A program made the translations under genes and the position numbers. The notes under the pieces were generated by a model. The model worked only from the letters and a program-made list of their open reading frames with translations, had not been told where the DNA came from and did not search any database. A stretch of 52,494 bases of DNA, filler included, from Catajapyx aquilonaris (Eukaryota), in assembly GCA_000934665.2 (NCBI GenBank). It is 2 parts of 2 records of this genome, joined end to end, with 100 filler letters (N's around TTAATTAATTAA, not from the genome) between each part and the next. Parts side by side here need not be neighbours in the genome. Positions count along the whole stretch, not along the records: positions 26,353 to 52,494 come from JYFJ02005245.1; 1 more part is not named here. One strand, given 5' to 3'. Each line of letters starts with the position of its first letter. Within the stretch, counting starts at the first letter, position 1. Positions 9,411-51,400 of this stretch are shown piece by piece.

Positions 9411-9764
9411 CAGAGGTGGGCACAGCTAACTTTCGATAACAGCTAACTTGCTCAGCAAAACCATGGACATCACCAAATCCTTAATGCTTAACAGCTAGAA
9501 AGGTTAGTGGANNNNNNNNNNNNNNNNNCCCCCCCTAATCATTCTAGCTGTTTATCATTAGCAATTTAGCGCCGCCCACGGTTTACTAACCGAATTAGCT
9601 GTTAGCGGAAGTTAGCTGAGCTAAAAATTACGGCTATCTTGCCCAGCTCTGCCGTCAGATGTAAGAAGACCGTAACTCAAAAACTAGTAAGGGTGAAAGA
9701 GCATGCATGCGACGGTACTAGTTTTTGAGTTACGGTCTTCTTACATCTGACGGCAACAGCTCTG
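9411..9764. mobile_element. hAT-like MITE with a nested palindromic insert
   Basis: TIR CAGAGGTGGGCA / TGCCCAGCTCTG. Near-identical 8-bp flanks GTCGTGAA (9403-9410) and GTCTTGAA (9765-9772). CAGCTCTG duplicated at 9644-9651 and 9757-9764 around the insert. Confidence 0.75.
9650..9755. mobile_element. Small palindromic MITE (40-bp perfect arms)
   Basis: TGCCGTCAGATGTAAGAAGACCGTAACTCAAAAACTAGTA (9650-9689) is the reverse complement of 9716-9755. Confidence 0.8.
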
Positions 9765-16797: not shown

Positions 16798-17613
16798 TCT
16801 CCAAGTTGCAACATGTTATTCGAAGCTTCGTCAGCCGTGTTGCCCTTTACCACCCAAACACACGCGGCGCAAAGGCTCCATGGAGTTCACACCACAATGT
16901 TATCGATTTGCCCTGGAAGCAACCCCCAGTGTGTGTATTTTTGGCACTTACACTTTTCATTGCATGCCATCACCCCCCTATAATTATTGACATCTAACAT
17001 GTAAGCCATTGTTGGCCCGAAAATCACCTACCCCCAAAATTCAATAATACAGGGTGTCTGAACTTTTTTTTTGTCCGAACCGTTATCGGAAAAGCCTGTG
17101 TATCTTGTTGGGGGCATATTCTGGCTACATAGCTAGATGATAGGCTACAAATAGGCTTTTCCGATAACTGTTCGGAGAGAAAAAGTTGAGACACCCTGTA
17201 TACAGGATGACCCCCAAAAAATCTGGACACATACGTATGGTATACTGTTGGTGGCCGACTTTTTGGGTCACCCTGTAATGTATACTGTATACGCAGCAGC
17301 AGCAGCAGTGTATTATTCATTCGAAAATAAATAAATAAATAATAAAGGTCAGTGCTCTGTGAAACACTGTCCAAGTCCACATAAGTTTATAAATTATTGT
17401 TCACACCAGCAACTTGCGATTGTTGCTCATATGGAACCCAGGTGCTAGGGTCAACAATCCACATAATGTTACAGTCCAGTAGATTCAGGCAATGTAATTA
17501 AATAAATATGCATCACACTAAATATTTTTCGAATAATGAATAAATAACTAACATGTAAATGAATGAATTACATATAAATACTCGAGTAAATTAAAAATGC
17601 AAGAATAAATTAC

Positions 17614-17682
<69 letters not shown>

Positions 17683-18504
17683 GTTTTATTAACCTGCAAG
17701 GCTTTGTGGGGCCTTCTGCAGAAAATGCAAGAATAAATTACATACTAAACACTCCAGTAAAATAAGTAAATTAATTTAAATGCAAGTGTAAATGAAATAA
17801 GGAAATAAACCTTAATACGTACGTGAAACAAATGACGTAATACACGAAACAAATTAATACACGAAACAAATTAATTAATTCACGAAACGAATGAAATTAT
17901 TAATACACGAAATAAATAAAAAACTCATTAAACGAATAAAATAAATGTAATGTAATAAACGAAAAAAATTGACAAATTGTAAAAAAAAAACATGAAAATA
18001 ATAATAAATCAATAACAATCAAATAAATCAATGTTATTGTTCCATCTGACATGTACGAGTGACGTTACAGGTCTTATTGTTGAACATTGTTGCCGATTGA
18101 AATGTCGTCGCTGCTATCGGGTCCATATTTACTTCCACGATTTTTTTTTGGTTGCCGACTATGAATCAATAGCGACGCAAACACCTGTAATATATATTCC
18201 ACTTGTTGTCTGCCCAACCTGGCAACACCGCCACGGCCAATCCACCCATCCTTGGCCCCCCTCCCCCCCTTTCAATGAGAGAGTAAAAAAACAAGTACAT
18301 CCCCTCCCCCCCCCCCGCCCTTTTAATAATAAGAAAAAGAAAAAAATCGGCACAATCGCACACCTTTGCACTATTGATAGCAGGCTCTGATAGTAATAAA
18401 AATTGCGAAATCCACTTTTGGATATAATCCGACCCTGGAGCCAACCCCAGGGCGGCCCCCCCCCATAGGGGCGGGTACTCACCTCTATCTCCTCGACGTT
18501 CCAT
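11769..18504 (-). CDS. RXR: Retinoid X receptor / ultraspiracle (NR2B)
   Basis: Exons 18504-18483 ([14 protein letters not shown]), 13199-13082, 13021-12836, 12782-12476, 12423-12300, 12244-11769, all in frame. DNA-binding domain [32 protein letters not shown]-box [11 protein letters not shown]; ligand-binding domain [27 protein letters not shown]-2 FLMEMLEAP. Confidence 0.96.
15670..15886. repeat. Short dispersed repeat containing GGTGATGAGTCA (3 copies)
   Basis: CTACATGCACGTTGGTGATGAGTCAC..GGACAAAGCCCACC at ~15670 and ~15772; third core at ~15875. Confidence 0.7.
15911..16198. mobile_element. Palindromic MITE-like element in RXR intron 1
   Basis: Arms at ~15923-16038 and ~16051-16190 are reverse complements, e.g. 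TCTGACGTCACCTCGTCTCTGATTGGCTGGTATGGACTTGTTACCTGTGGAGGCCGCCA. Confidence 0.8.
16768..16795. repeat. (CA)n microsatellite
   Basis: Direct reading. Confidence 0.95.
17050..17198. mobile_element. Tc1/mariner-type MITE
   Basis: TA|CAGGGTGTC...GACACCCTG|TA, with inverted arms extending to TTATCGGAAAAGCCT / AGGCTTTTCCGATAA. Confidence 0.8.
17203..17275. mobile_element. Second, abutting Tc1/mariner-type mini-MITE
   Basis: TA|CAGGATGACCC...GGGTCACCCTG|TA directly after the previous element. Confidence 0.65.
17617..17681. repeat. (AAT)n microsatellite
   Basis: Direct reading. Confidence 0.97.
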
Positions 18505-19074: not shown

Positions 19075-19123
19075 CCGACCGTATCTGTCATTACGGTATA
19101 TGCCCCACCAGGCCTAGTATGGG

Positions 19124-20182
19124 ATGAGCTGGTTGAAGCTGCCCAGGGGCCGCCCCGGGGCCTGGCTGCCCCGGGTTGGGGTCCTCCTTTTGGGGGTGTA
19201 CATCCTCCATATGGGTGGAGTCCTGCTGTGGGTACGGGAACAACCGTTGGACCTCCAGAAGCTGCAGTACCCGATGCAAGGCGAGGTGTCACGTTGGGTT
19301 GATATGATTGAGATGCAGCAGGCTGAGTCGGTACCGGTACCGGTGTACCAGCATCAGTATGACTACAGGATGAGCTGGGCGGTACGGTGTAACCAGTCGG
19401 AGCGGTTGCGATTGGTGATGCTGGTCAAGTCGGATCCGACGCACTTCAAGCGACGGGAGGCCATACGCAACTCGTGGGGGTTTGAGAGGAGGTTCTCGGA
19501 TGTGCTGGTACGTCGTGTGTTCCTGGTGGGTCGCAGGGGTACGGCAGTGCAGCGCAGGATTGATTCGGAGCATGCGACGCACAAGGATATTCTCCAAGCC
19601 GACTTTACCGATGCGTACTTCAACAACACTATCAAGTCAATGGTTGGACTTAACTGGGCACGGTCGTGCAATGCAGAGTACATGCTGCTGTGCGATGATG
19701 ATATGTACATTAGTCTGAAGAACCTGTTGCGGTTCGCGCGTGATCCAACTCGTTACCCGCAATGGACTGCGTTTGAGCATGTGCCGGACTTGCCCGATGC
19801 GCCGCTGCTGTACGCCGGATTTGTGTTCAAGTCCCGACCGCATCGGCATCGTACGTCAAAGTGGTATGTGCCGCTTGAAGAGTGGCCGTACAATGCGTGG
19901 CCGCCGTACGTAACAGCCGGTGCCGTCTTGTTATCAAAACATGCATTGGACCGCATGTGCACAGCTGCAATGTTCACAAAACATTTCCGGTTCGACGATG
20001 TGTACTTGGCGTTACTAGCGCATCGTGCTGGAATACCGGCGGTACATTCGCCACACTTTCATTTCTGGAAGCTTCCATACAATGTGCACGAGTATGAGAA
20101 CGTTATTGCATCGCATGGGTACGACGATCCGGCTGAGCTAGTGCGAGTGTGGTCTGAACAGAAGAGTGCCGGACATGCCTAA
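19124..20182 (+). CDS. brn: Brainiac-like beta-1,3-glycosyltransferase (GT31)
   Basis: Single-exon 352-aa type II membrane protein. Motifs LVKS..RREAIRNSWG, DFTDAYFNNTIK, CDDD, WPPYVTAGA, FRFDDVYL, IASHGY. Confidence 0.9.
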   Translation: MSWLKLPRGRPGAWLPRVGVLLLGVYILHMGGVLLWVREQPLDLQKLQYPMQGEVSRWVDMIEMQQAESVPVPVYQHQYDYRMSWAVRCNQSERLRLVMLVKSDPTHFKRREAIRNSWGFERRFSDVLVRRVFLVGRRGTAVQRRIDSEHATHKDILQADFTDAYFNNTIKSMVGLNWARSCNAEYMLLCDDDMYISLKNLLRFARDPTRYPQWTAFEHVPDLPDAPLLYAGFVFKSRPHRHRTSKWYVPLEEWPYNAWPPYVTAGAVLLSKHALDRMCTAAMFTKHFRFDDVYLALLAHRAGIPAVHSPHFHFWKLPYNVHEYENVIASHGYDDPAELVRVWSEQKSAGHA

Positions 20183-21227: not shown

Positions 21228-23599
21228 ATGGGCAGCCATGAAAAGAAGCAGGGCACGCCACAGGTACTGTACAAGTGTATGTACTGTTTGGGCAAATGTG
21301 ACCTCTGACCTCATTGCAGGAGTTGCCCCGGTTGGGTGAACGGCCGCTGACCACAACTTTCAGGATTGATCTGGCAGCCGCATCGCTCTTTGCATTGTCG
21401 GTGGCCACTCGATTCTACAGGTTGGATGAGCCACGGCATGTTGTGTAAGTACGGCATCGGTACATTCCGGACAAGCATAACCAGGTTCCGTTGCAGATTC
21501 GATGAGCTGCACTACTGCAAGTACGCCGGGTTGTACGTGCGGCACACTTTCTTCTTTGACTCGCAACCGCCGTTGGGTAAGCAGCTTGTTGCGCTGTGTG
21601 CGTACCTGGCCGGATTCGATGGGAAGTTTAAGTTCGATAGGATCGGATCGCCCTACACGCCTGACGTACCGGTGGCTGCAATGCGGTTGGTTCCGGCCCT
21701 ATTCGGAAGCCTCATCGCACCGACGGCGTACTCCATCCTGCTTGAGCTGGGTGCGTCGCAATGGGCTGCCGGACTAGGCGGGCTGTTGCTGGTGCTGGAC
21801 AATGCGCTTCTGACCCAATCGCGGTTCGTGCTAATGGAGTCGATGCTGGTCGAAACCGGGTTGATCGCATTGCTGATGTTGCTGAGAGCGCAACGTAGCG
21901 ACGGTTGGCAGTGGGGTTGGACCGCACTTGCCGGGATTGCGATTGGCGCTTGCGTCAGCATTAAGTACTCGGGCGTGCTCAGCCTGTTGCTGGTTATATG
22001 CTTATCGGCGCACGACTGGTGGCGGCGGCTTGCGACCACGACTTGGACAGACAGGCGTGCGGCTTCGGAGCTGCTCATGCGCTTGCTGTTACTTGTTGGG
22101 ATTCCCGTCGCAATATACGTCGGCTCATTCTGGGTCCACCTGGCGACGCTAACACGAGCCGGTCCGCACGATTCGCTGATGACGTCCACATTCCAGGCCA
22201 GCTTGGAAGGCGGCTTGGCGTCAATCGTCCGCGGTCAGCCCTCGATGGTGGCGCACGGATCGCAGGTGACACTCCGCCATTCGCATGGCCGACCATGCTG
22301 GCTTCACTCGCATCCACACCCGTACCCGCTCCGGTACGCAGACAAACGAGGCTCGTCGCACCAGCAGCAAGTCACATGCTACTCGTTCAAAGACGTCAAC
22401 AACTGGTGGATTGTGAAGCGGCCCAACAGGACCGACTTGGCCACACCGTCGCCAACCGCAGTCGATGCGATCCGGCACGGCGATATGATCGAGCTGGTTC
22501 ACGGCATAACAGGCCGGTCGCTTAATTCGCACGATGTGGCCGCCCCGATGTCGCCGATGCACCAGGAAGTCAGCTGTTATGTGGACTACAATGTGTCGAT
22601 GCCAGGTCAGACACTGTGGCGTGTCGAGGTCGTTAAGCAGGACGGAGCAAGTAACGGCGATGGCACATGGCACTCGATACAATCGATGGTGCGATTAGTC
22701 CATGTAAACTCGAGCCAAGCGCTAAAGTTCAGCGGAAGGCAGTTGCCGGACTGGGGGTTCAACCAGCATGAGGTCGTCACCGATCGGGTACTGGACCAGG
22801 AAGATACGCTCTGGAACGTCGAGGAACATCGCTACACAAAAAGTAAGTTAACATCGCTGTAATCTGCCGTATTTAACCCATGTCGTTTTCAGGTGACGAT
22901 CAGAAGGAGCGGGAACGTGAGCTGGTCGGCGCAGAGATGATCCCGGAGCGTCCGACTTCCTTAACGTTTTGGTCCAAGTTCTGGGAGCTGCAGCGGAAGA
23001 TGCTGCTTCCGTCCACGACCGGGAATCCGCCGGACACGCTTCAGAACCATCTGTACGGATCCGATCCGGCTGAGTGGCCCTTTTTGGTACGTGGTATCGC
23101 GTATTGGGTCAGTCCGCAGAGTAATGCGCAGGTACACCTGCTTGGGAATCTGGCCGTTTGGTTTCCATCGTCGGCGGCTATCATCACGCAGGTGGCTCTT
23201 CATATGTTCTTCGTGTTGCGGCGCAGACGAGGTTGCTTGGACGCATCGGGCGACTCATGGCTGCGTTTCCAGGCGGCCACTCGCGTACTGTTAACGGCGT
23301 ACTTGCTGCATTACGTCCCGTTCTTCCTTCTGGATCGTACGTTGTTCTTACACCATTACCTTCCAGCGTACGTCTTCCAGGTTATGCTCCTGGCCGCACT
23401 TGTCGACAACCTGCATCGGATGGCGTCCGGCTCACTCTCGCGTGTTATCGAAATCGCCATTTTCATATGGGTGTGCGCCGCAGCTGGCGTGTTTGTGCAG
23501 TTCAGCCCGCTCTCGTACGGCTTAGTGGCTCTGAATGCCACTCAGGTCGCTGGTCTCAGGTGGCTCGAAACCTGGGATTTGATTATCCATAAGGCCTAA
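21228..23599 (+). CDS. POMT1: Protein O-mannosyltransferase 1 (rotated abdomen orthologue)
   Basis: Exons 21228-21263, 21320-21444, 21497-22842, 22893-23599, in frame. Motifs VVFDELHY, FFFDSQPPLGKQL, MIR domains (WLHSH, SSHQQQVTCYSFKDVNNWW, LNSHDVAAP), QVHLLGN, LFLHHYLPA. Confidence 0.95.
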
Positions 23600-26252: not shown

Positions 26253-26352
26253 NNNNNNNNNNNNNNNNNNNNNNNNNNNNNNNNNNNNNNNNNNNNTTAA
26301 TTAATTAANNNNNNNNNNNNNNNNNNNNNNNNNNNNNNNNNNNNNNNNNNNN
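26253..26352. other. Artificial contig-joining linker (assembly artefact)
   Basis: 44 N + TTAATTAATTAA (stops in all six frames) + 44 N = exactly 100 bp. Confidence 0.92.
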
Positions 26353-29341
26353 CTCCTCCTCCCCCATACCCTCCGCCTCCTCCGCCATGACCTCCCTTAT
26401 GACCGCCTCCATGTCCACTTTCCTCGCTTTCTTCATCATGGCTGAAGTGGTTGAAATAGAGGTACGGCTTGTAGTGGTGGTACTGGATCAACCTGCAACA
26501 CCATCAGGAGGTCATGGGGTATCACAGGCTCAGTTTTCAGATCCACGTAGTCTACTATCTACTGCATGTGTCTCTCCTACTCTGGCATTTTCCCCACCCG
26601 AGAGAATTATGTTTGTCCTATTTTGCAAAACCCCCAGAACCTTCAATAATATTATTATGCCTCCCTGTATTGAATGGTTCCGTTGCAAACTACGTATAGG
26701 CTACAGTGTGGTCCGTAATGATTCCGGCAACGTTCTAGGAAGAATTGCATAGCACCACTACTAGAGGATCACTTTATGCAGAGGTGTCATGTGACGAGAT
26801 AGGTCTAAATGGGCTTCAACACATAAGGTATCAAATATCCTGAGAGATATACGTCCCGTCGAGCGACCTTGAGCTTAAAATATGCACGTATATTATATTA
26901 GTCTACCATGCCAATGTAAAACTGCTACCGGTACCGGTATCTCAGTGGATGTAGAAGTCAATCGCTTAGGCTGTATCAGTGGATATGAGATGGTATAATG
27001 CATAATTAATGCTAATTATCTCGGCAACTGGGTTTTGGAGACCAAATGGTGCGTCTGTCTAAAGTGATCATCTAGGGCCCAGGAACTCGTCATACATAGA
27101 GCATTGTCAGAATTATTACGTAACACCGTGCACATTCGAATACTTATTAGTTTTTAAAATTGACACCATACCCTTTCATTTAGTATGCTATTTGCTTTTA
27201 ACTCCCGCTATTGACTTACTTATTAGCTAATTTTAATGTAATTTTATAAGGAACTATAATTATTAAAGTTCGGTTATGGTTTCTTGCTTATTAATGACAA
27301 CACTGGTGTCGTAGTCCATATAAAAAATGGAATATAAGTAGGCCTGTAACATTCTTTTGCATTTTTCTGAATTTCAGTGCGAGCGGAAATACATGCAGGA
27401 CTACAGGCCGCTATGACTTTCTACACTGGGGAGTTACATAATTTATTAAGTGGATGGATGAACTGATGAATGAATGAATAATATATTGATGAATGGATGA
27501 ATGAATGAATGAATAATATGTTATTGAATGGATGAATGGGTGGATGAATGAATGAATGAATGAATGATGGCTTCTTACTTTCCATGTTGCTGGGTCGAAG
27601 AACCTCCTCTGGACGGCAGGAAAAATGCATGTGATACAGCAATTAGCCCAACAACGACGCTAATATAGATCTGTAAACAAAATGACAATATTAAATTCCT
27701 GCTTGACCTCATAATAGGCAAAACCAGAATATTGTGTCCATGGTCCGATTCACAACTTATAATATTCTCGTATTACTGGTGTTGGTAAGAAAAGAGCGTC
27801 GTTGTTACCTTTTAAGCCGCTGCTTTGGACAAATTGTAGTTATTTACAGAATCAGGCCGAAATAGGAATATGATTTGAATGTGATTGGACATACGGTATG
27901 TGAGAAAATAACAAATAACCCTACCCAACTTATTACGGTGTAAAAGTTCTTGATTACACACAGTTTGCATTATTTTTTTGTCGCCGCCAAGAAAAAAATA
28001 CAAGTAAAACAGTCTTCATTATTATTTTTTTATGTAACACGTTTTAAATCTAAAAATATAAGAGTTCCTCTCGGCCTTTATCCTGAATTGAGGACATCTT
28101 ACTATTTGCCTCTGGTCAAATCCATGTTGTGGTGAAGACGCGTTCTTATGTCAATGTCAATATGTCATTCCAAACTGTTTCTGTGTGCACGTAGCATTCC
28201 CTTCCCCCCTCCCCCACTCTCATATCCCCTAAACTCACAAAACTATATTCTTCTTTGCAGTTCACTTTTGTCAACGTAAAAAACCTTGTCGGAGCAAAGA
28301 CACTTTTCCCCGTCGTGTCCTCTTTCTTCAGAGGCAAGAAGTTTGAATGTTACTTTTTATGAACTCGCTTGGAAGTTAGGAATTGGCACTCCTGCAACTT
28401 TTCACTATGATAATATCGATGGTTAGTCCAGTTTGTAAGAATGCAGTTAGAGTTTGTTGTGTAGTTGACACAAAAACATTCAAACTTGTGACTTGGCATT
28501 GACAATGAACTTATTCAAAAATAAGTCACGTTATATCCATACTAATTAATAATGTAGATAATTTTGAAAAGCCTGTTTAAAAGTGCCTTTTAATGAAGAG
28601 CATTTCAGGAATTAAAATAATGTGGCTTGATTAAACTGCGTTAGAAGCCTTCATAATGTAGCTTGTATGTAGAAAAAACCATATGTAAAGGCAGAGGCCA
28701 TCCACCGGCTTTTCCAAATGCCACCCACTCCGGACAGCCCATGGCTATGATTAGGACGATAAAAATCTCGGCGAGGTGAGGGAGTTGTTGTCCCTTTAGT
28801 ATAATAATTGCCAAGGTGCCAAGTGCCACGCATGACATAATTATAACAACTCTGCCTCTTGCCGGTCGTCTTAACACCTTCACTTATATAGCTGAGGATT
28901 ATCCGGAGTGGGTGGCATTCAGAGTAGACTGTACCTTTATCAAGAGCTAATGCCTTTATATATTTTTCTTTTCTGTAGGCTATAGTTCCAGGCAAACATT
29001 GCATCTCTTTTACCAATCTGATACTATTGCGTGCAGAGGAGTTTAATATTAATACAATGACCACGTATGGAAAAAAAATTCCAAAAAAATTAAGTTGCAC
29101 ATGGAAAAACTAACCATCAGTTAAATTAACATGCCGGATCAAGCCTTAACAACTGCTGGAAAAATAGTCTTCAGTCATTCTAAGTAGTCCACTCTTAGTC
29201 CAAGGTAGTAGAAATGTCTCTTCACACGTCAGAGGACAACGAGTTATTGTCTTTTCACCTAAATACCATTCACTGTTACCCCCAAAAAATAAAGCAAGCA
29301 CTTAGACCCACCAATAGTTTAGTCCAAGTGGACGCAGCCAT
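26353..29341 (-). CDS. Secreted Gly/His/Tyr-rich protein ('FFL' family, copy B; 3' end lost in gap)
   Basis: Exons 29341-29312, 27670-27579, 26492-26353(gap) with GT-AG introns of phase 0 and 2. Product MAASTWTKLLIYISVVVGLIAVSHA|FFLPSRGGSSTQQHGKLIQYHHYKPYLYFNHFSHDEESEESGHGGGHKGGHGGGGGGYGGGG... Confidence 0.8.
27450..27567. repeat. Degenerate (GAAT/GGAT)n microsatellite
   Basis: Direct reading. Confidence 0.85.
28717..28919. mobile_element. Degenerate inverted-repeat element
   Basis: AATGCCACCCACTCCGGA (28717-28734) and TCCGGAGTGGGTGGCATT (28902-28919) form a perfect 18-bp inverted pair. No clear TSD. Confidence 0.4.
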
Positions 29342-29436: not shown

Positions 29437-30950
29437 CCCCTTTTCTTCACTCAGGATTGAAATCAGCAAGAATGCTTTTTTACCCCCCTTAGAAAAGAAG
29501 GTGGGGTAGGATGGGTGGGGGGTCAGTGGCTGGAACAACCACCAGCTTTTCTCAAGACGGTCATTGGGAGCACAAGAGTTCCGCCACTTGACCGGCCCCG
29601 GGAGTCCACTCTGATTTTTTTTCTTCTTCTTCTATTGCTCTCTCCCTTCCCCCCCCCCCNAATGAAGAAGACGAAGAGGAAGAAGCAGACGGAAAGAGGG
29701 GCGGGGTCCATTCAAAAAGTGGAGATTGGGGTCTGCCACTGAACCGATCAAAAAAGCTTCAGGCTGAAATTCAATATCCAGATACATCAGAGGGAGTTGT
29801 TGCCTTTCACTATCTCCAGGTTTTTTAAAGGTGTTTGGTGATACTTTTTTGGCTTACATTAGCCTAGGTCATCTGATTAGCCCTGGGCTTGCATTATTAG
29901 CAGACAGGAAGTGAAGTTTTGGTGTTTGTCGACAGGTTTTTATAGTTGAGAAAATTCCAGACAACTTTACTATTTACCAGAGTATCCAGACTGGATTTAC
30001 CATATGTGCGGTTTTTTTTTTCTCTCGTGTGGCCGCCAGTCACATATAATGTGGAGTTTCGGGTTCGATTCCCTGTCAGGCCACAATGCCCCAATCACTT
30101 CCAGTATAATATTCCGATGTGATGTCGCCGTTTAAAGAGCCATAAATCACTAACAGTTACAAATGACGACAACAACAGCAATAAGTCTGTTACAAATATG
30201 AAAAAAAAGCTGAACAAAATAATGCATGCAGTCAATCGATCGATCAAATTCACATTATTTTGATGTGAACTTTGTTTTGTTCACGAGCTTCTTTTTTTTT
30301 TAAAAAAAGGGGGGGGGGTGGCCTCATTTTTATTTGGTGCACTTCATAAAAATCCTGTAACTGCACATTGCAATTCTGCAACCCGGAGATTAAAAATATT
30401 AAATGCATAGAAGTAGATTTCTATTATGCACTGTACTGCCAATTAACCTGATATCGAGCGTAGCCATTGCAAAAAAAAGGCTGCTTTTTCGTAAAGAAAG
30501 AAAGAACATTGACTCTTTTTCTGTCACCTACAAAGTGATGATTAATTATATGTCTTAATTACGGCTAATTAGTAGGTAGAATAGGGATGGTTCTCCTTAT
30601 TCCTGTTGCATGTAAGATTGCAGAAAATACTTTGAACCGTTCCTTACAATGAAGACACACTGGTTCAGCGAGTCAAGTACTATGTGTTCTATGCTTTCTT
30701 GCACCTGTCTCAAATTAGCAATGCTTTCTTGGGCTCGGAGTTATAGCACCATTTCTCCTGATTACCGCAGCAATTGTAAGTTTAAAAAAAGGCAGTGGCA
30801 ATACACCTAACAGTTACTTCCCGAAGTTAATGGGAAGTGAAACTTACATTTGGTAATTAATATAAACAATTATTCCTGCTCCTTGATGTTTTCAGAATAC
30901 TGTATAAGCCACTTTGTACAGTACAGTGATGTATCAGTATAGTGTTGTTG

Positions 30951-30954
<4 letters not shown>

Positions 30955-31040
<86 letters not shown>
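30955..31040. repeat. (TAT)n microsatellite
   Basis: Direct reading. Confidence 0.97.
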
Positions 31041-31041
<1 letters not shown>

Positions 31042-34000
31042 GTCTAGTTTATAAACCACGGAAACAAGACCAGTCCATTGGCCACTCTTACTAGGATTTT
31101 AAAAAAAAAAACACCTGATGACAGCTGATTAATTATTTCTTGTATGGTGGAATGCAAGAGAAGTAAAAGTGCATCAATTTCACCCAAGCATCAGCAAACT
31201 GTTGACCTCCGGTTTCTCTTCATTGGCTACAAAAATATCGCTAATTGCTCTCGACTTATTATTATCACATTTTTTATCTGAATATGGACTCTGAGGTGTT
31301 GTTGAACCTCAAAGGTGATCCAGAAGGAGGAGAAAACCAGACACGACTCGTCCCCGTAATAAATTCATTAATCTTTTATAGCCGCGACGAAATATTGACG
31401 AAAAGAAAAGAGAGTGAAATCGTATCAAAAAACTCATCCACACCCTACAAAATAAAAAATAAAAAAGTCAAGACTCTAGAAAAAATTTGCAGGAATTTTC
31501 ATGTCTTCTCAGGTTGCATAGATGACGAAATTGTAATTTGGATAGTGGTTCAGCTTGAATATTTTAAAAATTGGACAGGTTGAGTGTGGGGTGTGGTAAG
31601 GAGGAACTGCCCAGTGTCCAAAAGGGAAAGTCTCCGTAGTATTGGAAATGAAAGGAAGGGTGAAAGTTACGCCTTTTGCAGCTGGACCTTTCCCTTATTC
31701 AGCAGTTTGGGGGAGCTGACAGGTCCTTCACACTAAATCGCGCGTAACTTTTGACTTGCGGTTGAGGAGTCTGATAGTTATACCTGATCATTAAAAGCAA
31801 AGGTGTTTCGTCAAATTCAAGTGCCACTCTGATTCGGTCTGTACATTTTAATAAGGATTATCAGAAAAGTCAAGCATTTGTCATGGCAGTCCCAAAAGGG
31901 GTCACGTAGGAAAGAGTTGTACGTGCATCGGGTGCAGCCTCGTTTTTTTATGCTGTACCTGTAAGTTCAACATACAATTACAATATAAATTATTGTGTGC
32001 ACCAGTTGATGTACAAGTGCGATGTGCAGTTGGAGAACCCATTTAGAAATACTTGTCAGGTCGCCAGGACAACTCTGGCATAATGTTGTACCCCTTTTCT
32101 GCTTTGTAACATACAGGGTGAGATATGGTACAGTACTTTTGAATTTGAATTCCGCAGTGCAAACATGATCATCATGGAAGATAAGACGGTAACATGCTAG
32201 GGTACGGTGTGCATCTGTCTTAGAGAAGTCAAGCTAAACTTGCGCAGAAAGCTTCTATAATATAAGTTACAAGGTGATCCAAAACACTAGTTCGATTGCT
32301 GTTGCGATCTTTTCACACTAAGCTGCTTATTACTATGCAGTTACTGTGGATTGGTTACTTTTAGTGTCAAAAATTGGTTGCTAATATTTGGTTGTGTCTT
32401 AAAATCTGCAAGAATGTGTGGTCTGAACAAAATGGGTTCCACCATAGATTGACCTTCTATACCAATTTCCAATCGGCCATTCAAAATTATAAATCCATTG
32501 CAATTTAGAGGTTGGATAGGTCATTCAATTCAGCATATTATTAGCATCTAATAGTTTTGATGACCACTAAAAGTGGCAATTCCAAATTAATTGATAAATA
32601 ATATGCAGTTTAGTGCGAAAAAATAGCAACAACAATCGGGTAAGTAGCTTACATTGGACCACCCTGTACAGTATATTAATACATACGTGTGTTATTATGC
32701 AGCATTTGTTTTCAGAACTATCCATCACATTGAGTAAAAATTGAATCATAAATAGCGTAATGTATAGTACGTACTTGACGCTTTCTCTTCTATGGCCAAG
32801 TCAGCCTTCCGCTAGAGCAATATTACAGTTCCGTTACAAATCTGCTGGAAAAAAGGGGATCCCACAAAGAATAATGCAATCGTCAAACTTCAAATTCTGA
32901 TATCTCGAAATCACTCAGTTGTGAGCCTGATGCGTTTTCGACCACAATTTTAAGGGCATCATAGGGAACTGAGTGAGAGATAGTGATTGATATATTACAC
33001 CAATTCTACGCACGTAACAGTAGAAAGCCTGCAATAATCATATTATCATATGTGCGCACAGTTTCATTTACATGAGGGGCGAGGAAGCAGCAGATTTGGA
33101 AATTCGACGTTTCGAAATGTGTACCTCCCTATGTCAACGATCTTCAACCTTTTTCTTGACATCGACGATCGACCCCATTGACAGTGTAATGAGCGTACTG
33201 TAGTGTAGATCTTTTTACGGGACGCGTACAGTCAAACTGTCAATTTTTAAAACCATGGCACCGTATCATAGTAATTTGGTATACAGGAACCTAATAAATC
33301 AGCCATTATCCAATAAGTTATACTGTATTACGGTATGTCAATTCTCGGATCACTACTAACACGTGCGCAGTTCGCCGGTTGAAGACCGCCGCTATAGTAT
33401 TTTATCAACTGTCTATTACACAGTGTATCCGGATTGAAAGGTAGGCCTAGTAGAAAAAATGTAATATGGCTATCTGTTTTTGAAAAATATGACGTTTAAA
33501 GTAGCCGACAGTATTTATGTGTACAAAAATGTGATTGGTTACGTCGTGTTGTATAAGTTACACTGGCGATGCGATGGCGCCAATATTAGCCACCTTGATT
33601 TTACTGCTATATACATTTCCATCCGAAACCTCACTTGCAACTTTATAATAATTACGGTACTTTCTTTTAAGACCTCTTTTGCGCATACAGGTTGACGACA
33701 GGCTGCTGTGTTGGGAGGAGTTGTCAATTCGGCTGGAAAAAATAATTACTTGCACTATTTTGTTCAACCACATGTCACAATCATATGCTCAGCCTTTTAC
33801 ACTCGTCATGCCGTCAACGCATGCGACACCACGGACATTATATGCTACGTAAGCAGATTCACTCTCTGCCCATGGTATTATCTTGGACAAAAAGATGACA
33901 CCGTTCCGTTCTGAATAGTGAACTCCTTGAAGCCTACTGAAATAATTATGTATGTAGTGTAATTTATTTTATGTTGTGTAGAAGTTCAACCTTATTTATT

Positions 34001-34748
34001 ACATATTCCTGGAGATACTGAACAGTATTGTCATCATATTAATGGACCGCTATTGATTCTCTAGAAAGGCAATACAATATTAAGGTGCAGGAAATCTGTG
34101 ATTTTTCAAACTAATATCGTTCTCTCAGACGATCTTGACTTTTCATCCTCTTTATGAGAGTAACTTACATTTTAATAAGCAATACGGAAACATCTCATCC
34201 CTCTGAAACAGTTCCTTTTATATTTGGGGAAACCAGAAAAATTATTTCGAAATTAATGTTACAATACGTAGATAATATATACGCAAGGTAGGTCTACACC
34301 GAATTACTGTATGAGAAAATCTACTAGTAGCAACTGCTTTTGTTTTAATACTAGTATTTGACAAAACTAATTGAGGGGTAAGCCGATGATGATAAAAGTA
34401 TTTATAATTTTGCAGATAAGTGCTGTATGCATGTCAACAGAATACACAACACTCAATAATAATGGCAAGGGAATATATTTTCTGCCATGGAGCCAGCTGA
34501 CTACCCCTTCTTTAGGTACAGACACAGTATCGTATAAGGAATGTCGTGACGATTTTCTAAAATCACTATCGGTATAAAAATCAGCGCTTACATACATTCC
34601 TGAAGTCCATTGAAATGTTCAACTGCAATAAAAAGTGGAATAAAAAAACCTTATGTAGATTTACCCTACGAACAGCATTTTATTGAGAGCTTGCGAAAAG
34701 GATAGTGGGCATGAAAACAATTGATCTCCTGAATCTTGGCCAACCCGT

Positions 34749-36110
34749 CTAGTGGTGATGATGGCCATGGCCATAGTGGTGATTGTAGTGCTTGTGGTGG
34801 TGGCCATGGTCCACGTACACGTAGTGAGGATGATGGTGATGGTAGTGATGCACCGTCTTGCTGCCGCCACTGAGTTGGAATAAAATGTTGTAGTTGCATC
34901 CACAATAGTTGTTCACTCAAAGTTATAGACTAGTTGAGAATAAACTAATGTGATTTCAATATTTCCCTAGGCTTTGGCTTGTGATAATCATTCATTTTTT
35001 TACACGCTTGCACTATTTTAGTAGGATTTAACGACCTTTTCTAAACAGGTCCTTCCGCAACTACAGAATTTGAAAGGAACACGCAGCAATTTGCGCATTT
35101 TTTGCCCGATTCATTTTTAACAATCAGTCTGCACAAATCCTAATTTCCCCAATCACGCATGGTGGCCAGCGGGTACTCTATAGCGTTACCCCCAAAACAC
35201 GAGTTGTTAAAACAATTAGAGTAATCAGAAGTCACGCCAGTCACGTACTTGCGACCATCAGAATCGGGCAATAATTTCCGTAACATGAATGCAATTAGGA
35301 AGGGCCTTGGGGAAATGCTTCCAAGCATGACCAGACGCATTATTGAGACTAAAGGAAACATATAAAGTTCAGTCAAGTCTGACCAAAAGCATTTTTGAGA
35401 CCAGGAAAGAAAAGAAGGGTAGGGGGGGAAAAAAAGCACTCGTCAAGAAGAATTAGCACCCATGTCGGCCGCATCTTCACGTGCCAGTAATCAGGGGCTT
35501 AATGAGGACAAGAATTTGGGGAAGAGTCATCAACACTTACCCCTTTTTCCCTCCGCCCAAGAAAAAGGCATCAGACGTGGCCAAGGCGCACAAGAAGAGT
35601 GCCAGGATCAACTGAAAGGGGAGGCCGCCATATCAGCCTTCTATCAGCTTTATTCCCCTTTCTGCCTTCCCAAGGAGAAACACCCTAATTTCAAAACTAG
35701 TAAGGGTGAATGTCGTGTGCATGCATTGCACTAATCCTCTCTGACTCAGGAGGGATTTAATGCAGGACATGCATGCGACTTTCACCCTTACTAGTTTTGC
35801 AGTTAGGGTGTTTCTCCTTGGGATTGCAGCTTTGCCTACAAGGTGGCTCTATTCCGTTATCTGCACGCTTGTCAAGTTCATACAACCGAGCGAGAGGTCG
35901 GACAACATTGGTATCACTGGAATAATATGTTAAGGAAATGGCTTATGTTGGAGTAAGCAGCAGTCACGAAACTGAGAATAAATTTGCTCGAATGATATGC
36001 AAAATTTCGGCTTGTCAATCAACTCCTGTAGAAGCAAGAGTGTGAATATTCCAAATAGTAAATTGAGAAAAAATTGGTATTATACTCACAACCGCCTTAG
36101 CTTCCACCAT
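34749..36110 (-). CDS. Secreted 70-aa histidine-rich peptide precursor ('FFL' family, copy A)
   Basis: Exons 36110-36090 (|GTGAGT), 35611-35541 (TTTCAG| ... |GTAAGT), 34869-34749 (CTCAG| ... TAG), phases 0 and 2. Product MVEAKAVLILALFLCALATSDA|FFLGGGKKGGGSKTVHHYHHHHPHYVYVDHGHHHKHYNHHYGHGHHHH*. TATA box upstream; AATAAA at 34684-34679. Confidence 0.88.
35662..35829. mobile_element. Palindromic MITE in intron 1 of FFL copy A
   Basis: Arm TCCCAAGGAGAAACACCCTAA..AAAACTAGTAAGGGTGAA mirrored at ~35781-35823. CTTT flanks both ends. Confidence 0.8.
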
Positions 36111-36178
36111 TTTACCCCTAGTCTCTGGAACTTCCAGCAAGCTGTTGAGGACCCAAATGGGGGCCCAACCCATGAAGT

Positions 36179-36187
36179 CCTTTTATA
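36179..36187 (-). promoter_or_regulatory. TATA box of FFL copy A
   Basis: TATAAAAGG on the minus strand about 70 nt upstream of the ATG at 36110. Confidence 0.7.
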
Positions 36188-37668
36188 AAGACGGTGTGCA
36201 AAGGAGCCAAGTTCAGTGTGAAGGGAATCTGCTTCCAATCATCCATTTCAAATGATTTTTTTTTTTTGCAACTCTCTTTTCACTACAAATTCTTTGAAGG
36301 ACGTATCATCTCAATTTCATGATTGAATCCTGCGTGTCCGTAATCGTGCAGAGAAAGTCCCGGATATTTGCTCACCAAATCCGGATGCCAACCACAATAT
36401 TATCAGAATACGCAAACTGTGTGGTGTAGAAGAAATGAGAAAGGGTCACGTTATGATTCATTACGTAAGGGTGCATTTTCATAACCTGGAGGAATTAGGA
36501 AGCCGCATTGCCACCGATGTCACGGGGTGTTAAAGAGTGGCGCCTGGCGCCAGCTGCTTTCAAGAGAAGAGTGTGAAAATCTTGGAAGGAGTTTTTGGAG
36601 AAAGTCGACAAAAGGTCCACGCTGTCTCGGATCAAACCGGACTCGTTCTTAATCCACTCTCTACGACCGTGAATCCTCTAGACCTTTTTGTGTCTTTTTT
36701 GTGGTATCCCCACCCAGATGAGAACCAAGGCACAACCGGCTCCCTCAAGAACACTCACATCTCTAATCGAATCGATAGAAGGAATATATTCGACCACTTA
36801 GTAACAGTATAGCAGGCGGTAGGTGCTGATGCCTTGGCTAGTGTGTAGTACTGTACAAGTATGATGCAAGTATATTTTGATCAAATGAAGTTTATTTTCA
36901 TTCCGCAATAAGATAATATACCTCTGCCTACACTTATGGCTCAAAAAAAATTTAATATTGCAATTATGTGCTGAGATAATTGGCTGCAGTTCCCTTATGG
37001 AGTTTTACATTTCATTTTTCTCTTGGATCCAAAAAAGCAACTTCCATACAAGATGAAATATAGGATGTGTGTGACAAAATTCTGCTTCCATCTTTAAGAT
37101 TGGTCCAAAACAACACGAATATTATTGTTTTGTGTAGGTATCATAAATGTAGGCTACTCTCAAAACAATTATGAGTTACAATTATTATTCGTAAAATACT
37201 ATTGGTTTTCCAAGCATTAAAAAATGAAGGTCCATGTCGGTATCCGTTCCGTATTTCCCAGTCGGACATGACCATGTTCTCTTCATTGTACTGTACCTGT
37301 ACTTATTACGCTTCATTTTAGCGACGACCTTGTGAGGAATAGTATTAAAGCACTGGGCATTGATAAGTAGAACTTCCAGTACCGTACTCTAGTTCAAAGG
37401 ATTCCTATTTTTATGCGTCTATATGGTAGAAAAAAAAGAAGCCTTAATATTATCCATGCAGTATGAATAAAATTAATTTACACCAGAACAACTTGAAATC
37501 TGTAATGGAATATTCAGTTGCTCCCTGATGTTATGCTGTAATATTGATGTTTTGGTTAATATTTGTGAATTTCTTTCAGAGTATGTAGTAGGCCTACTGT
37601 ACAGTACTTCTGATGCTTGCAAAACTGAGCAAAACCATACCAGTGATTTGCATTTCAGCTCGCTTATG

Positions 37669-46625: not shown

Positions 46626-47371
46626 TTAGGGTGAATCAAATTAAACCCTTTCTTGGCTTCTAGAGAGGATACTACTGAACGCAGGGACTTGGAATTTCTA
46701 CCACGGAAAGGTAGTACCAATACCTTCTAAATTCATAGGTAAGAGCCTGAGCATGCATACCAAGAACGCCGCCGCAGCCAATCCAAGATGCGCACTGATG
46801 GCCTACGCACTGTCGAGCATGCCCAATCGGGATCAGCGCATTGTTATCCCATTTCTGGTGGCCAAGGGCAATAGACCGGTGGAAATCCATCTGAAGATGC
46901 TTACGGTGTACTCTGCCAGCTGTGTGGCCAAGACTACCGTCAAGGAATGGTTCAGGATTCGGAGATGGCAACCAATCCATTGCTGCTGACCTTCCCCGAC
47001 CAGGCCAGGCTTGGCCAGCAATCACACCTGCCATCATTACACCTGTGGACCAGCTCATAAGGGGGGATTGTGGGTACATCTGGCTTATTTGGATGCACCA
47101 TACACCGTAAGCATACTCTGATGAATTTCCGCCAGTCTATTGCCTTCACCCATCAGAAATAGAATAGCAATGCGCTGATCCCACTTGGGCGCGTTCAACC
47201 ATGCGCACACCATCTTGGATTGGCTGCGGCGGCATTCTTGGTATGCACGTGCAGGCTCTTACCTATGCATTTAAAAGATATTGGCACTATCTTGTGGTAG
47301 AAATTCCAAGTCCCTGTGTTCAGTAGTATCCTCTCTAGACACCAAGAACAGGTTTCATTTGATTCACCTAA
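46626..47371. mobile_element. Mariner-derived foldback element made of two inverted 5' ends
   Basis: TIR TTAGG(G)TGAATCAAAT; arms of ~285 bp. Left arm encodes a mariner N-terminal HTH remnant QRIVIPFLVAKGNRPVEIHLKMLTVYS..TVKEWF, followed after a frameshift by DLPRPGQA..VDQLIRGD. Confidence 0.85.
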
Positions 47372-48439: not shown

Positions 48440-51400
48440 TCACACTGGATGTAAGTAGCCGTCAAATTTACTTGACAATGGTGGGCGAGTGAAAGGTGAC
48501 AACCAAGCAAGTGAGAACCGACCAAACACTGCCTGAAGGCTTTTCCATCTTGATTTTTTCACCCACCGCGCCTCTTCCTTCTTCAATTGTTCTATGCCCT
48601 ATAAACACCCAAGACAATATTGAGTTTGATATAAAAACTAGATATCAACATGACTTACTGTCTCGTCGTTCCAGATGGCCTGCAGCTGGGTGCCAAGCAT
48701 TACCGCAGTAAATATGGAGAACAGAAGAGCTTCAAAAATGAGGAACAGAAGAAGAACAACACTGGCAGGTGGTGAATAGGAGGAGCAGTCCTTCCATTCA
48801 TGCCGGATGCACACAACAAAGTGATTCACCGACAGGATCAATGCATGAAGTGATATCACAGCTATGTAGAACTGCAGAAAATAAGGACAATGTCAAGTAT
48901 ATCTGCTTTCCAAACTGAACAAAAAGGAACCAGCCTTTTGTACACAATGGGTCAAAAGTCCCATCACCCCCTTGTAACTTCTGACCTGATACAAAGAACA
49001 TTATGAATTAAGTGGAGTAATGTAGATCAATTTCTAATAGGCCTCTTTCTCTTTAATTCCAGGCTCCTGCACACGTGGTTACATTTTACACCTTGCTAAC
49101 AAGAATGGTGATCCTTACATATCATTACAAAATCTACAAACCAAAGACATTCATACTCCATTCAATTTATTCATGTTTTTGTTTGAGTTTGTAAGTGTCA
49201 AGGGACTGATGAACATTAGGCCCATCTCATAGTATTGATAGTCCAAACCAAACGCCCCATAAATGAGAACATTAGTTTAACACAAATAATTAATGAACAA
49301 ACTTAAATAAGTAATTATTCTTAAACACATCAAAATAAATGGTAAATCCCAACCAAAAGTCAGCAATAAAGGAGGAATTTGATTGTGATGTGACTTGACC
49401 TGCAATGCATACACTGAAAATGTCCCTTCACTCTCAATTGACATCTGATTATTATCTCAGATGTCAGCCTTGTCATCTATACCACATATGTAGTTTTTGT
49501 TTGAGATTATTTCTTTGAATGCAATTGATGTTTTGAAAAAAACTCTCTAATTTTGTTACATGATGGGGGTCAAGAAGTCCAGGGAAAAAACCATCCAAAC
49601 CATCTGCAAGGCATTGTATCTGGGGAACAGCCTGTTTCAATAGTACGAAGACTATCAAACTAACTGAATGTCTTGCAGAAAAGTCACTCACATCAGTTGG
49701 TGTCATGAGTGCTGATAGCTAGGGAAGGTGTATCAAAAGATTGATTTTTTTCAGAGCTAATAAAGCAAGAGTGAGGAACATCTAAACCATTCAGCTATGA
49801 ATTTTGGAAGGTAAGGTTGGTCTGGTGAAAAGGTGGACAGTCAAGGATCTTGGGATATTGATTCTTACAATAGGTAGGTGTAGCGTGTAGGTCCCAGGCT
49901 GGGATGGTGTGGAAAAGCGCAAGCAAAAAAAAAAAAAGGATGGTGTAATACTGCTGATGAAAACAAGCCTCAAGATCCTGCCAATAATTCTTTGTACATG
50001 ACAAGCACATGTCTATTACTCCAAGACCCACCTACAATTTTGGCTCTCTTGTTTAGAGTTGCAGTATTTATGGCTCTGCCAAAAGCATTTAGCTCTCCAG
50101 TCCCACTGTGTTACCTCTTTGGACACTAAGGCCTCTAAAATCAGCTGGAGTTGCCACATGAAACATATAACTTTCAATGTACAAGTACTGTATCATGGGT
50201 TCATGACTTGATAACTCCAGCAGGTGTTCAAGGTCTCATCTTGCCATAACATCTTGATTGGTACAGCGTACAGGGTAGGTCAGATTTTGATAAGATGGCA
50301 GATCAGGACTACCTGTTGTCTTTCGCTGAACCATGCCATATGTGAGGAAGTTACCCTTCCATTCTCTCACATCTATCCACAGCACTCATACACTGAGGCA
50401 GTTTGCACTTACCGTGAACAGAACAAAGAACTTCTGATTGTTCTCGCCTACACAGTTATTCACCCAAGGGCAGTGATGGTCCATTTTTCTAATGCAGCTA
50501 CAACAGTTAACACATGAAAATGAGCTAGTATTCATTACTTCTCAAAAAGTGCTGTATGTACTTACCGTTGACAGACGGAACAGTGATGAGCTCGTTCTGG
50601 TTTGATGCTGCAGCACTTAGGGCACTTGAATATGACCTGACCTTGGCGGAACCCCATTCGTTGAATCATCTCATGGGTTGCATTACCCTTTGGCACAGCA
50701 CCCTGAAAATCACAAATTTATATTCAGAACAATGTTCAAACACTTTCTCATTTTATATGCATGAATCCAAATAATGTTCCCATTACCAACTGATTCAGCA
50801 AATGGATGAAGCCATCTATTCCATTGAAAATTATGCGAGCTGATGTTCAAGCAATCACTATATTATTTGAATAAGCATGCTTCTTAAAAGCACACTTACA
50901 ATATAAAATTAAAAACATAGCAGATGCACACACATCTTGGAAGACACAGTCAATATTTAGCCTGACTTCATAAATGGGTTATTCACTCTTGCAAAAATGG
51001 TGATCTGGAACTTTTCATATGGAACAAATAAATGCCTCTGACTATGTCAGGCCTTCATGAGTACTCGTATAGGCCATTTGCCTAGCATGAATTCTTAATA
51101 AGATGCAGATTTTATAAAGTTTTTATTTTATTGTGTTTTGAGAATTATGTTTCTTTGGAATGTCCAGGTGCAAGCCTGGAACTTCCTGAATAATGGCTTG
51201 ATGCCTCTGCCAATTGAATGGCATGATCTACTTATGGAAAATTCTTAACAATTATAATATTCCTGAGTATTACAAATTGAAGCCATTTACAAAGTCTACA
51301 CTTACCGGGTCGGTGAACATGGCCCTCAAATGCGAAAAAACTGCCAGAAATGCCAACGTTTGAAATACAACCATATTGATGGTGCTGTAAAATGGGTATG

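Follow-up and report, generated by a model that had tools for sequence, protein, structure and literature searches.

A candidate three-exon gene for a secreted histidine-rich peptide and a diverged relative downstream in Catajapyx aquilonaris

The locus described here raises the question whether a histidine-rich stretch that appears in no open reading frame (ORF) track belongs to a real gene for a small secreted peptide and, if so, what such a peptide might do. It lies on the minus strand, at 34679-36187, of a 52,494-nucleotide (nt; filler included) stretch of DNA from Catajapyx aquilonaris (GenBank assembly GCA_000934665.2), here called the window, in which parts of two records are joined end to end. 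A first-pass annotation of the window had proposed a hidden three-exon gene at this site, encoding a secreted, His-rich peptide of 70 amino acids (aa), and had suggested a metal-binding effector or a cuticle peptide as its product. We asked whether the gene model stands up against chance, whether the window or the protein libraries hold any relative of it, and which functions its predicted product would best suit.

A three-exon gene model on the minus strand

We consider it likely that a real, unannotated three-exon peptide gene is present at this site. The TATA box, the ATG, three exons of 21, 71 and 121 nt with GT-AG introns, the stop codon and the AATAAA signal of the first-pass annotation were all reproduced exactly where it had placed them (Table 1). 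Splicing scripted by coordinates yielded a coding sequence (CDS) of 213 nt that stays in frame and encodes 70 aa, among them 19 His, 9 Gly and 5 Tyr, with the single Cys of the precursor located in the signal region; the mature peptide described earlier, with 48 aa, 19 His, 5 Tyr and no Cys, was likewise recovered from this spliced CDS. Exon 2 is predicted to encode the hydrophobic core of the signal peptide, the S-D-A cleavage region, the FFL that begins the mature peptide and a Gly/Lys spacer. A second in-frame ATG occurs at 36173, 8 nt past the TATA box; starting there would lengthen the precursor by 21 residues but would require a different promoter. The gene had been said to be absent from the ORF track, and this was confirmed: the default ORF list contains five ORFs of at least 60 aa over 34600-36300, each in another frame or on the other strand. 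The peptide gene is invisible to such a track because its His frame, open over 55 aa from stop to stop, contains no ATG, and the ORFs that are listed lie in other frames.

The composition of the region was then compared with that of its flanks and of recognizable genes in the same window. GC content is 52-55% in the exons, 41-42.5% in the introns and 36.5-37.4% in the 2-kb flanks, and GC content at third codon positions (GC3) is 0.70 in the peptide-gene CDS versus 0.62-0.72 in the Pfam-covered parts of the RasGEF, B3GalT and POMT1 genes. Codon choice also agrees with that of these three reference genes, with TAC:TAT at 4:1 (31:4 in the reference) and AAG:AAA at 4:1 (28:9 in the reference), and GGC and GTG are favoured in the peptide CDS as they are in the reference. 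Exon 3 is the sole His-rich ORF across the six frames of the window. Tandem Repeats Finder (TRF) reported no tandem array in 34000-37000, even at a score of 30, which rules out an origin from a (CAY)n microsatellite. In addition, the minus strand in 34500-36400 contains only two GTRAGT sites, and both are donors of the gene model.

To place the model against chance, the window was scanned on both strands for complete models with a TATA box, an ATG, donors reading GTRAGT, YAG acceptors rich in pyrimidines, an N-terminus resembling a signal peptide, a product of 50-150 aa and AATAAA. The results showed two three-exon models in the window, namely the peptide gene and one at 51603-51145, inside the region of a DHHC palmitoyltransferase gene, and no model in any of 40 block shuffles. 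When the TATA and AATAAA requirements were dropped, the real window gave 23 models versus 0.375 per shuffle, and splice and signal criteria alone are therefore not very selective. The possibility that the peptide exons are 3' exons of the upstream DHHC gene, whose exons lie at 48.6-50.7 kb, was rejected, since the peptide gene starts from a TATA box and an ATG of its own and encodes a separate signal peptide.

Intron 1 also carries an inverted repeat with the look of a miniature inverted-repeat transposable element (MITE), its 80-nt arms being 83% complementary and 8 nt apart. A related copy is found at 9648-9739, adjoining an N run at 9512-9528.

A related gene downstream and the search for further relatives

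A weak tblastn match at 26.3-28 kb led to a second, related gene, which is located on the same strand 8.3 kb downstream of the peptide gene and whose 3' end is cut by an assembly gap (Table 1); the first-pass annotation had described a single gene and missed this one. Exon A of the second gene encodes a predicted signal peptide that ends in S-H-A and is followed by FFL, and it contains an internal acceptor-like sequence (...tttgtttacag) 18 codons before the end of FFL, which is the distance at which the exon-2 acceptor of the first gene lies. Exon B encodes the core YHHxxPxYxYxxH together with an acidic stretch and a run rich in Gly, His and Tyr; microsatellites aside, exon B and exon 3 of the peptide gene are the window's only ORFs of Gly/His/Tyr-rich composition. 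A phase-2 intron precedes the His/Tyr exon in both genes. The spliced proteins align collinearly from the position of the exon-2 acceptor to the GHG near the end, with a score of 85 compared to 38.7 ± 7.4 in shuffles; none of 5000 shuffles reached 85, and 2 of 5000 did so when the signal and mature parts were kept apart. The N-terminal parts taken alone gave a score that 3 of 3000 shuffles reached, and the alignment of the last exons has 12 invariant columns, including three Tyr, six His and the Pro. Across the six frames of the window, the motifs [AS]xAFFL and YHHxxPx?YxY each occur in these two genes only, while AFFL alone has a further occurrence at 30470.

At the level of searches the relationship is faint. 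The protein of the peptide gene matched the second gene weakly by tblastn (E = 0.002 at 26399-26482 and E = 0.33 at 27458-27670), and the protein of the second gene, used as a query, returned exon 3 of the peptide gene (E = 1.3e-4) together with chance-level matches only. No DNA similarity to the peptide gene was detected at 26-28 kb by blastn, similarity between the two genes in their promoters and introns does not exceed that of shuffles, and no further copies of either gene were found in the window beyond the pair. Chance-level similarity in the non-coding parts fits an old duplicate of which selection would have kept the coding parts alone, and the peptide gene is probably one of at least two diverged tandem paralogues that form a small local family.

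Three minor features accompany the pair. At 27974-28018 on the minus strand, an ATG-led hydrophobic start (ATG at 28018) overlaps, in another frame, an FFLGGDKK-like stretch in which 7 of 8 residues match the mature N-terminus of the peptide (tblastn E = 1.2); a decayed copy of an exon, an alternative first exon belonging to the paralogue, or chance could each account for it. The 12-mer CACACAGTTTGC is located upstream of both genes in opposite orientation (36412-36423 and 27957-27968) and adjoins a TGATAA site in the peptide gene, with about 0.02 such matches estimated by chance. The intron of the paralogue contains a TCAT-type tetranucleotide array at 27450-27568 that reads as SFIH repeats.

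Relatives outside the window were sought in several libraries. Pfam hmmscan assigned no family to the exon-3 ORF, the exon-2 ORF or either paralogue exon, PF00379 (Chitin_bind_4, the R&R consensus) included, and the only match was a chance-level one to Myc_target_1 (E = 0.22). A word-indexed search of 5.8 billion clusters gave 36 candidates for the 55-aa exon-3 ORF among proteins of 30-97 aa and 118 candidates for the two-gene exon alignment among proteins of 82-2000 aa, none of them at E ≤ 10 in either case. Similarly, phmmer returned nothing at E ≤ 0.001 from 1.84 billion representatives, the PDB nothing at E ≤ 10, and the ESM Atlas no usable match for exon 3. For exon B of the paralogue, the ESM Atlas returned arthropod low-complexity clusters at 0.75-0.76, under the evidence level of the tool, annotated as hypothetical protein, 'putative cuticular protein CPG' (0.76) and DUF4766, which we regard as a weak lead. 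Homology searches of this kind are insensitive, given queries of 39-46 aa, their biased composition and very large libraries, and the blanks are weak evidence of absence. Since no identical protein is present there, the searched libraries hold no annotated or assembled transcript of the peptide. The literature yielded analogues, but no report of this peptide or of its motifs, the latter not having been searched as strings.

These blanks bear on the alternative that the region is no gene at all but a decayed low-complexity tract rich in His codons, with splice-like, TATA and AATAAA signals that happen to lie upstream of it by chance, which we consider improbable. Such a view can draw on the lack of any homologous or identical protein among the 5.8 billion clusters or 1.84 billion representatives, on the fact that the minus-strand frames over exon 3 are open in three of three, on the 23 models that splice and signal criteria alone produce in the real window, and on the modest similarity of the last exons to each other. 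Taken alone, the last exons are only weakly similar (z = 2.05, with 39 of 1000 shuffles reaching the score), and one off-frame pair of them reaches z = 1.76. Other points also count against a gene: there is no orthologue or family match in Pfam, the two protein searches, the PDB or the ESM Atlas; the criteria of the model scan were fixed post hoc, with the model already seen, and the paralogue comparison was post hoc as well; and His codons are one base away from Tyr, Asp, Asn and Pro codons, and part of the His pattern could stem from a decayed CAY-rich tract. Against a decayed tract, however, stand the GC contrast between exons and introns and a GC3 like that of the real genes of the window, the lack of a tandem array, the position of both GTRAGT sites of the region exactly at the ORF ends with compatible phases, and the absence of the full model from all 40 shuffles. 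The decayed tract is also at odds with a collinear paralogue that has the same cleavage motif, intron phase and core motif while its non-coding DNA is unrelated. Coherent signals, a codon bias like that of the neighbours and this same-strand paralogue thus back the gene model of the first-pass annotation.

The predicted product and its possible function

The gene product is likely a secreted His-cluster peptide. By a heuristic call that combines a Kyte-Doolittle window with the -3/-1 rule, the precursor agrees with a classical eukaryotic signal peptide, for which an n-region, a hydrophobic h-region 7-15 residues long and small residues at positions -3 and -1 are expected: the 9-residue Kyte-Doolittle mean peaks at 3.44 over residues 6-15, and the predicted cleavage site S-D-A/F is conserved as S-H-A/F in the paralogue. 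Cleavage after S-D-A, as proposed earlier, is favoured over cleavage after A-L-A because S-x-A/FFL is common to both genes. The predicted mature peptide has 48 aa and a mass of 5.7 kDa, an isoelectric point of 9.5 and no Cys, and it consists of 40% His and 19% Gly. It begins with a hydrophobic FFL tip, continues with a Gly/Lys spacer and ends in a tail of 33 residues, 58% of them His, in which Tyr recurs at regular intervals. Its computed charge is +3.2 at pH 7.4, +12.3 at pH 6 and +20.3 at pH 5. A single-sequence AlphaFold2 model of the exon-3 part, of low confidence (predicted local distance difference test 67, predicted template modelling score 0.18), has no secondary structure, which is consistent with the mature peptide being intrinsically disordered.

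The first-pass annotation had likened the peptide to histatins, to holotricin-3 and tenecin-3, and to the Nereis jaw protein Nvjp-1. The likeness is one of composition only, and none of the features that could be tested was found. Histatins are, like the peptide, short, cationic and disordered and contain both His and Tyr; they are a vertebrate family, however, and the peptide has far fewer Lys and Arg. Histatins are marked by an X-X-His amino-terminal copper- and nickel-binding (ATCUN) motif and by a HExxH Zn motif. Neither is present in the peptide, whose mature N-terminus reads FFL (or TSD if cut after A-L-A) and whose 70 residues contain no HExxH, and no Pfam or PDB match indicated homology to histatins. 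Holotricin-3, tenecin-3 and the Sarcophaga AFP are presumably, like the peptide, small, secreted, Cys-free, unstructured and rich in His and Gly. The holotricin-3/tenecin-3 type is marked by Gly-dominated GGH-type repeats, with about 20% His, and by expression that infection induces, whereas the present peptide has 40% His and 19% Gly, the comparison being one of composition; the GHGGGH-type run of the paralogue resembles the repeats of this type. Tenecin-3 is termed glycine-rich, and histatin is given as the named example of a histidine-rich antimicrobial peptide, in PMC2853521. Nvjp-1 resembles the peptide as a His/Gly-rich secreted matrix protein tied to Zn hardening, but it is a much larger annelid protein and the likeness is compositional; the dominant worm-jaw protein is reported to contain up to ~27% His (PMC8410824).

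Among arthropod proteins, the His-rich CPR proteins exemplified by BmorCPR152 resemble the peptide in being secreted, with ~40-45% His and HHHH/XHH clusters (PMC8062583). They are nonetheless RR-2 proteins with a chitin-binding R&R consensus and are much longer, while the present peptide has 48 aa and no Pfam domain. CPG-type proteins are secreted, low-complexity proteins of the cuticle dominated by GGx/GGY repeats; the peptide has only 19% Gly, and the paralogue has a Gly/His/Tyr run. The aphid protein RCP is likewise a secreted, low-complexity orphan for which BLAST is reported to find no homologues; His, Gly, Ser and Gln are described as abundant in it, and one position of its repeat is taken by either His or Tyr. 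It differs in its size of 27-45 kDa and its 31-43 octapeptide repeats, as the peptide has no tandem repeat (PMC6500135). The hisnavicins of Hymenoptera share with the peptide a His-rich composition, secretion and the ambiguity between an antimicrobial and a cuticle role, whereas in sawflies they are described as having a 62-aa motif repeated up to 19 times, and no such repeat is present in the peptide (PMC10542623; compared by description). Judged by its sequence features, the peptide fits no named family on any feature tested, in agreement with the first-pass annotation, which recognized none; Pfam, the PDB, the two protein-universe searches and the ESM Atlas provided none either.

We tentatively favour a role in a matrix or in cross-linking for this secreted, disordered His/Tyr peptide, by analogy with the systems above. 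In the proposed mechanism, cleavage of the signal peptide after S-D-A would release a 48-aa, Cys-free, disordered peptide whose clustered imidazoles and Tyr would be its working groups outside the cell. These groups could coordinate Zn, Cu or Ni ions and could also serve as nucleophiles for quinones produced by laccase or phenoloxidase, and they would switch the peptide from a charge of about +3 at pH 7.4 to +12 at pH 6. The peptide would become part of an extracellular matrix of the cuticle type, with chitin not required, where metal-His bridges and/or quinone-His/Tyr adducts would cross-link it, as in other His-rich arthropod proteins. The analysis shows the anatomy of the sequence, its coding-like composition and the paralogy; expression, secretion, the metal and quinone chemistry and the matrix role are inferred. 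This reading is preferred because of the conserved Tyr/His/Pro core, the Gly/Tyr run of the paralogue and the fact that it needs no chitin binding. It has analogues in the literature: silkworm BmorCPR152 (45% His, HHHH/XHHH repeats) is reported to be cross-linked by laccase2 with N-acetyldopamine (NADA) and N-beta-alanyldopamine (NBAD), and its knock-down to deform the cuticle (PMC8062583), and the His/Tyr-rich aphid RCP is reported to be cross-linked by quinones made by phenoloxidase (PMC6500135). In arthropod 'tools', Zn is described as bound mainly to the nitrogen of imidazoles, the layer concerned being made of protein, with chitin scarce or absent (PMC8410824). A very improbable extension of the matrix role is that the pair would be the founding members of an arthropod family, so far undescribed, of very small His/Tyr peptides without a chitin-binding domain, recognizable by S-x-A/FFL and YHHxxPxYxYxxH, which would constitute the long-sought imidazole matrix that takes up Zn or Mn where mandibles, fangs, stings or claws have a metal-hardened layer poor in chitin; the arthropod proteins of that layer go unnamed in the portions of PMC8410824 used here.

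A host-defence role is nearly as likely as the matrix role, although taken by itself it too would be rather unlikely. The peptide might be an inducible antimicrobial or antifungal effector that, like histatins, binds microbes in a cationic manner that depends on pH or Zn, or that withholds Zn, Cu or Ni (nutritional immunity). A 70-aa precursor and a 48-aa, cationic, Cys-free product of predicted disorder would suit such an effector, as would the hydrophobic FFL N-terminus kept in both paralogues and the climb in charge from pH 7.4 to 6, but the net charge at neutral pH is low. With regard to the promoter, which has a TATA box, three loci within 300 nt upstream of the ATG match the insect kappaB consensus GGGRAYYYYY (from PMC11116330) with one mismatch, and three or more such loci occur in 1.5% of 300-nt windows. 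One of the three, GGGACTTTCT (36361-36352), is also among the eight matches in the window to GGGRNWYYYY, a looser pattern of our own, and TGATAA, a GATA site of the form WGATAR, is located at 36405. These motif tests were post hoc, however; the promoter of the peptide gene contains no exact kappaB match, one-mismatch sites are at background across the window (96 found versus 108 expected), and the upstream 400 nt of the paralogue have no GATA site and a single one-mismatch kappaB-like site (28060). Hisnavicins are described as His-rich putative antimicrobial peptides of insects, but their sawfly expansion is reported to be orthologous to cuticle proteins of ants and bees, and the label thus does not tell the two roles apart (PMC10542623). 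The matrix role, for its part, is weakened by the absence of a chitin-binding (R&R) or other cuticle domain from Pfam results for the peptide gene and the paralogue exons, by a mature length of 48 aa, which is short for a protein of the cuticle and usual among antimicrobial peptides, and by the three kappaB-like sites and the nearby GATA site, which are a weak pointer to immune regulation.

A 20-nt element with a kappaB-like core is found twice in the region, once at 36223-36242, where some 40 nt separate it from the TATA box downstream, and once at 35309-35328 in intron 2; the two copies are 80% identical and may be due to chance.

Last, a neuropeptide or hormone precursor, in which cleavage at G-K-K past the signal peptide would yield a short amidated peptide with the His part as a spacer, has a close to negligible probability: the post-signal sequence does end in Gly followed by Lys-Lys, resembling an amidation and dibasic processing site, but KK is a poor processing site compared to KR or RR, the paralogue lacks a dibasic site there yet retains both FFL and the core of His and Tyr, it is the presumed spacer that is conserved, and no Pfam neuropeptide family was matched.

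Small, secreted, low-complexity His/Gly/Tyr peptides of arthropods are an already known kind. If it is expressed, the peptide gene would be a very His-dense addition (40% overall, 58% in the tail) to the secreted His-rich peptides of arthropods, and a real gene that ORF-based and homology-based annotation had both missed, with its three short exons, low-complexity product and no relatives found. Secreted His-rich peptides are of interest as substrates of quinone tanning, as antimicrobial peptides that can be switched by pH and metals, and as candidate Zn ligands in metal-hardened cuticle (PMC8410824). The non-repetitive core common to both genes would offer a means of tracing the family elsewhere, in the genomes of other species, for which composition alone is insufficient.

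Feature coordinates and surroundings in the window

Table 1. Positions of the two peptide genes and of recognizable neighbours in the window.
Feature	Position	Strand	Remarks
TATA box (TATAAAA)	36181..36187	-	sole TATAWR within 400 nt upstream of ATG
Initiator-like CCATTT	A at 36158	-	29 nt downstream of TATA box
Exon 1, coding part	36090..36110	-	21 nt, ATG + 6 codons, AAAATGG context, donor GTGAGT at 36089
Intron 1	35612..36089	-	478 nt, 42.5% GC; MITE-like inverted repeat at 35662-35829
Exon 2	35541..35611	-	71 nt; pyrimidine-rich acceptor ...cccctttcag, donor GTAAGT, phase 2 end
Intron 2	34870..35540	-	671 nt, 41% GC
Exon 3, coding part	34749..34869	-	121 nt with TAG; acceptor ...ttccaactcag; His/Tyr-rich domain, all 19 His
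Polyadenylation signal AATAAA	34679..34684	-	65 nt past stop, then T-rich stretch
Paralogue TATAAG	27761-27756	-	
Paralogue exon A	27712-27579	-	ATG at 27712, 134 nt, phase 2, donor GTAAGA at 27578
Paralogue exon B	26353..26492	-	acceptor ...gttgcag; runs into assembly gap at 26352
RalGDS-like gene (RasGEF_N, RasGEF, RA)	3980-6519	-	
Nuclear-receptor C4 zinc finger	12410-13036	-	
Beta-1,3-galactosyltransferase (B3GalT)	19118-20182	+	
POMT1 (PMT, MIR, PMT_4TMC)	21351-23599	+	
DHHC palmitoyltransferase exons	50565-50717, 50389-50541, 48641-48892	-	best E = 1.4e-15; nearest recognizable gene upstream of the peptide gene

Gene-dense, GC-richer arthropod DNA makes up the left half of the window, where the genes listed in Table 1 are present mostly as long exons, and the right half, from 26.35 kb, is AT-rich and gene-poor; both peptide genes are located in the right half. 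The two halves are separated at 26253-26352 by two 44-N runs around a TTAATTAATTAA linker with a stop in all frames, which looks like an artificial join of two contigs, and the halves are possibly no true neighbours. In the left half, POMT1 shares 56-66% identity with proteins of insects, crustaceans, chelicerates and a millipede, with 48% for the first-listed match, which has partial coverage, and no near-identical protein among the matches listed. In a quick tree the window fell on a long branch whose placement was not resolved. Among 261 right-half ORFs of at least 45 aa, Pfam recognized only the DHHC exons and a Mos1-type helix-turn-helix remnant. The latter is an ORF at 46645-46986 on the plus strand that matches HTH_48 of Mos1-type mariner transposases (E = 6.4e-5, just under the Pfam cut-off) and is probably a transposon remnant. 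Rfam gave no matches over the whole window. Long trinucleotide microsatellites that read as poly-Tyr in one frame are present at 782-907, 17613-17744 and 30943-31044.

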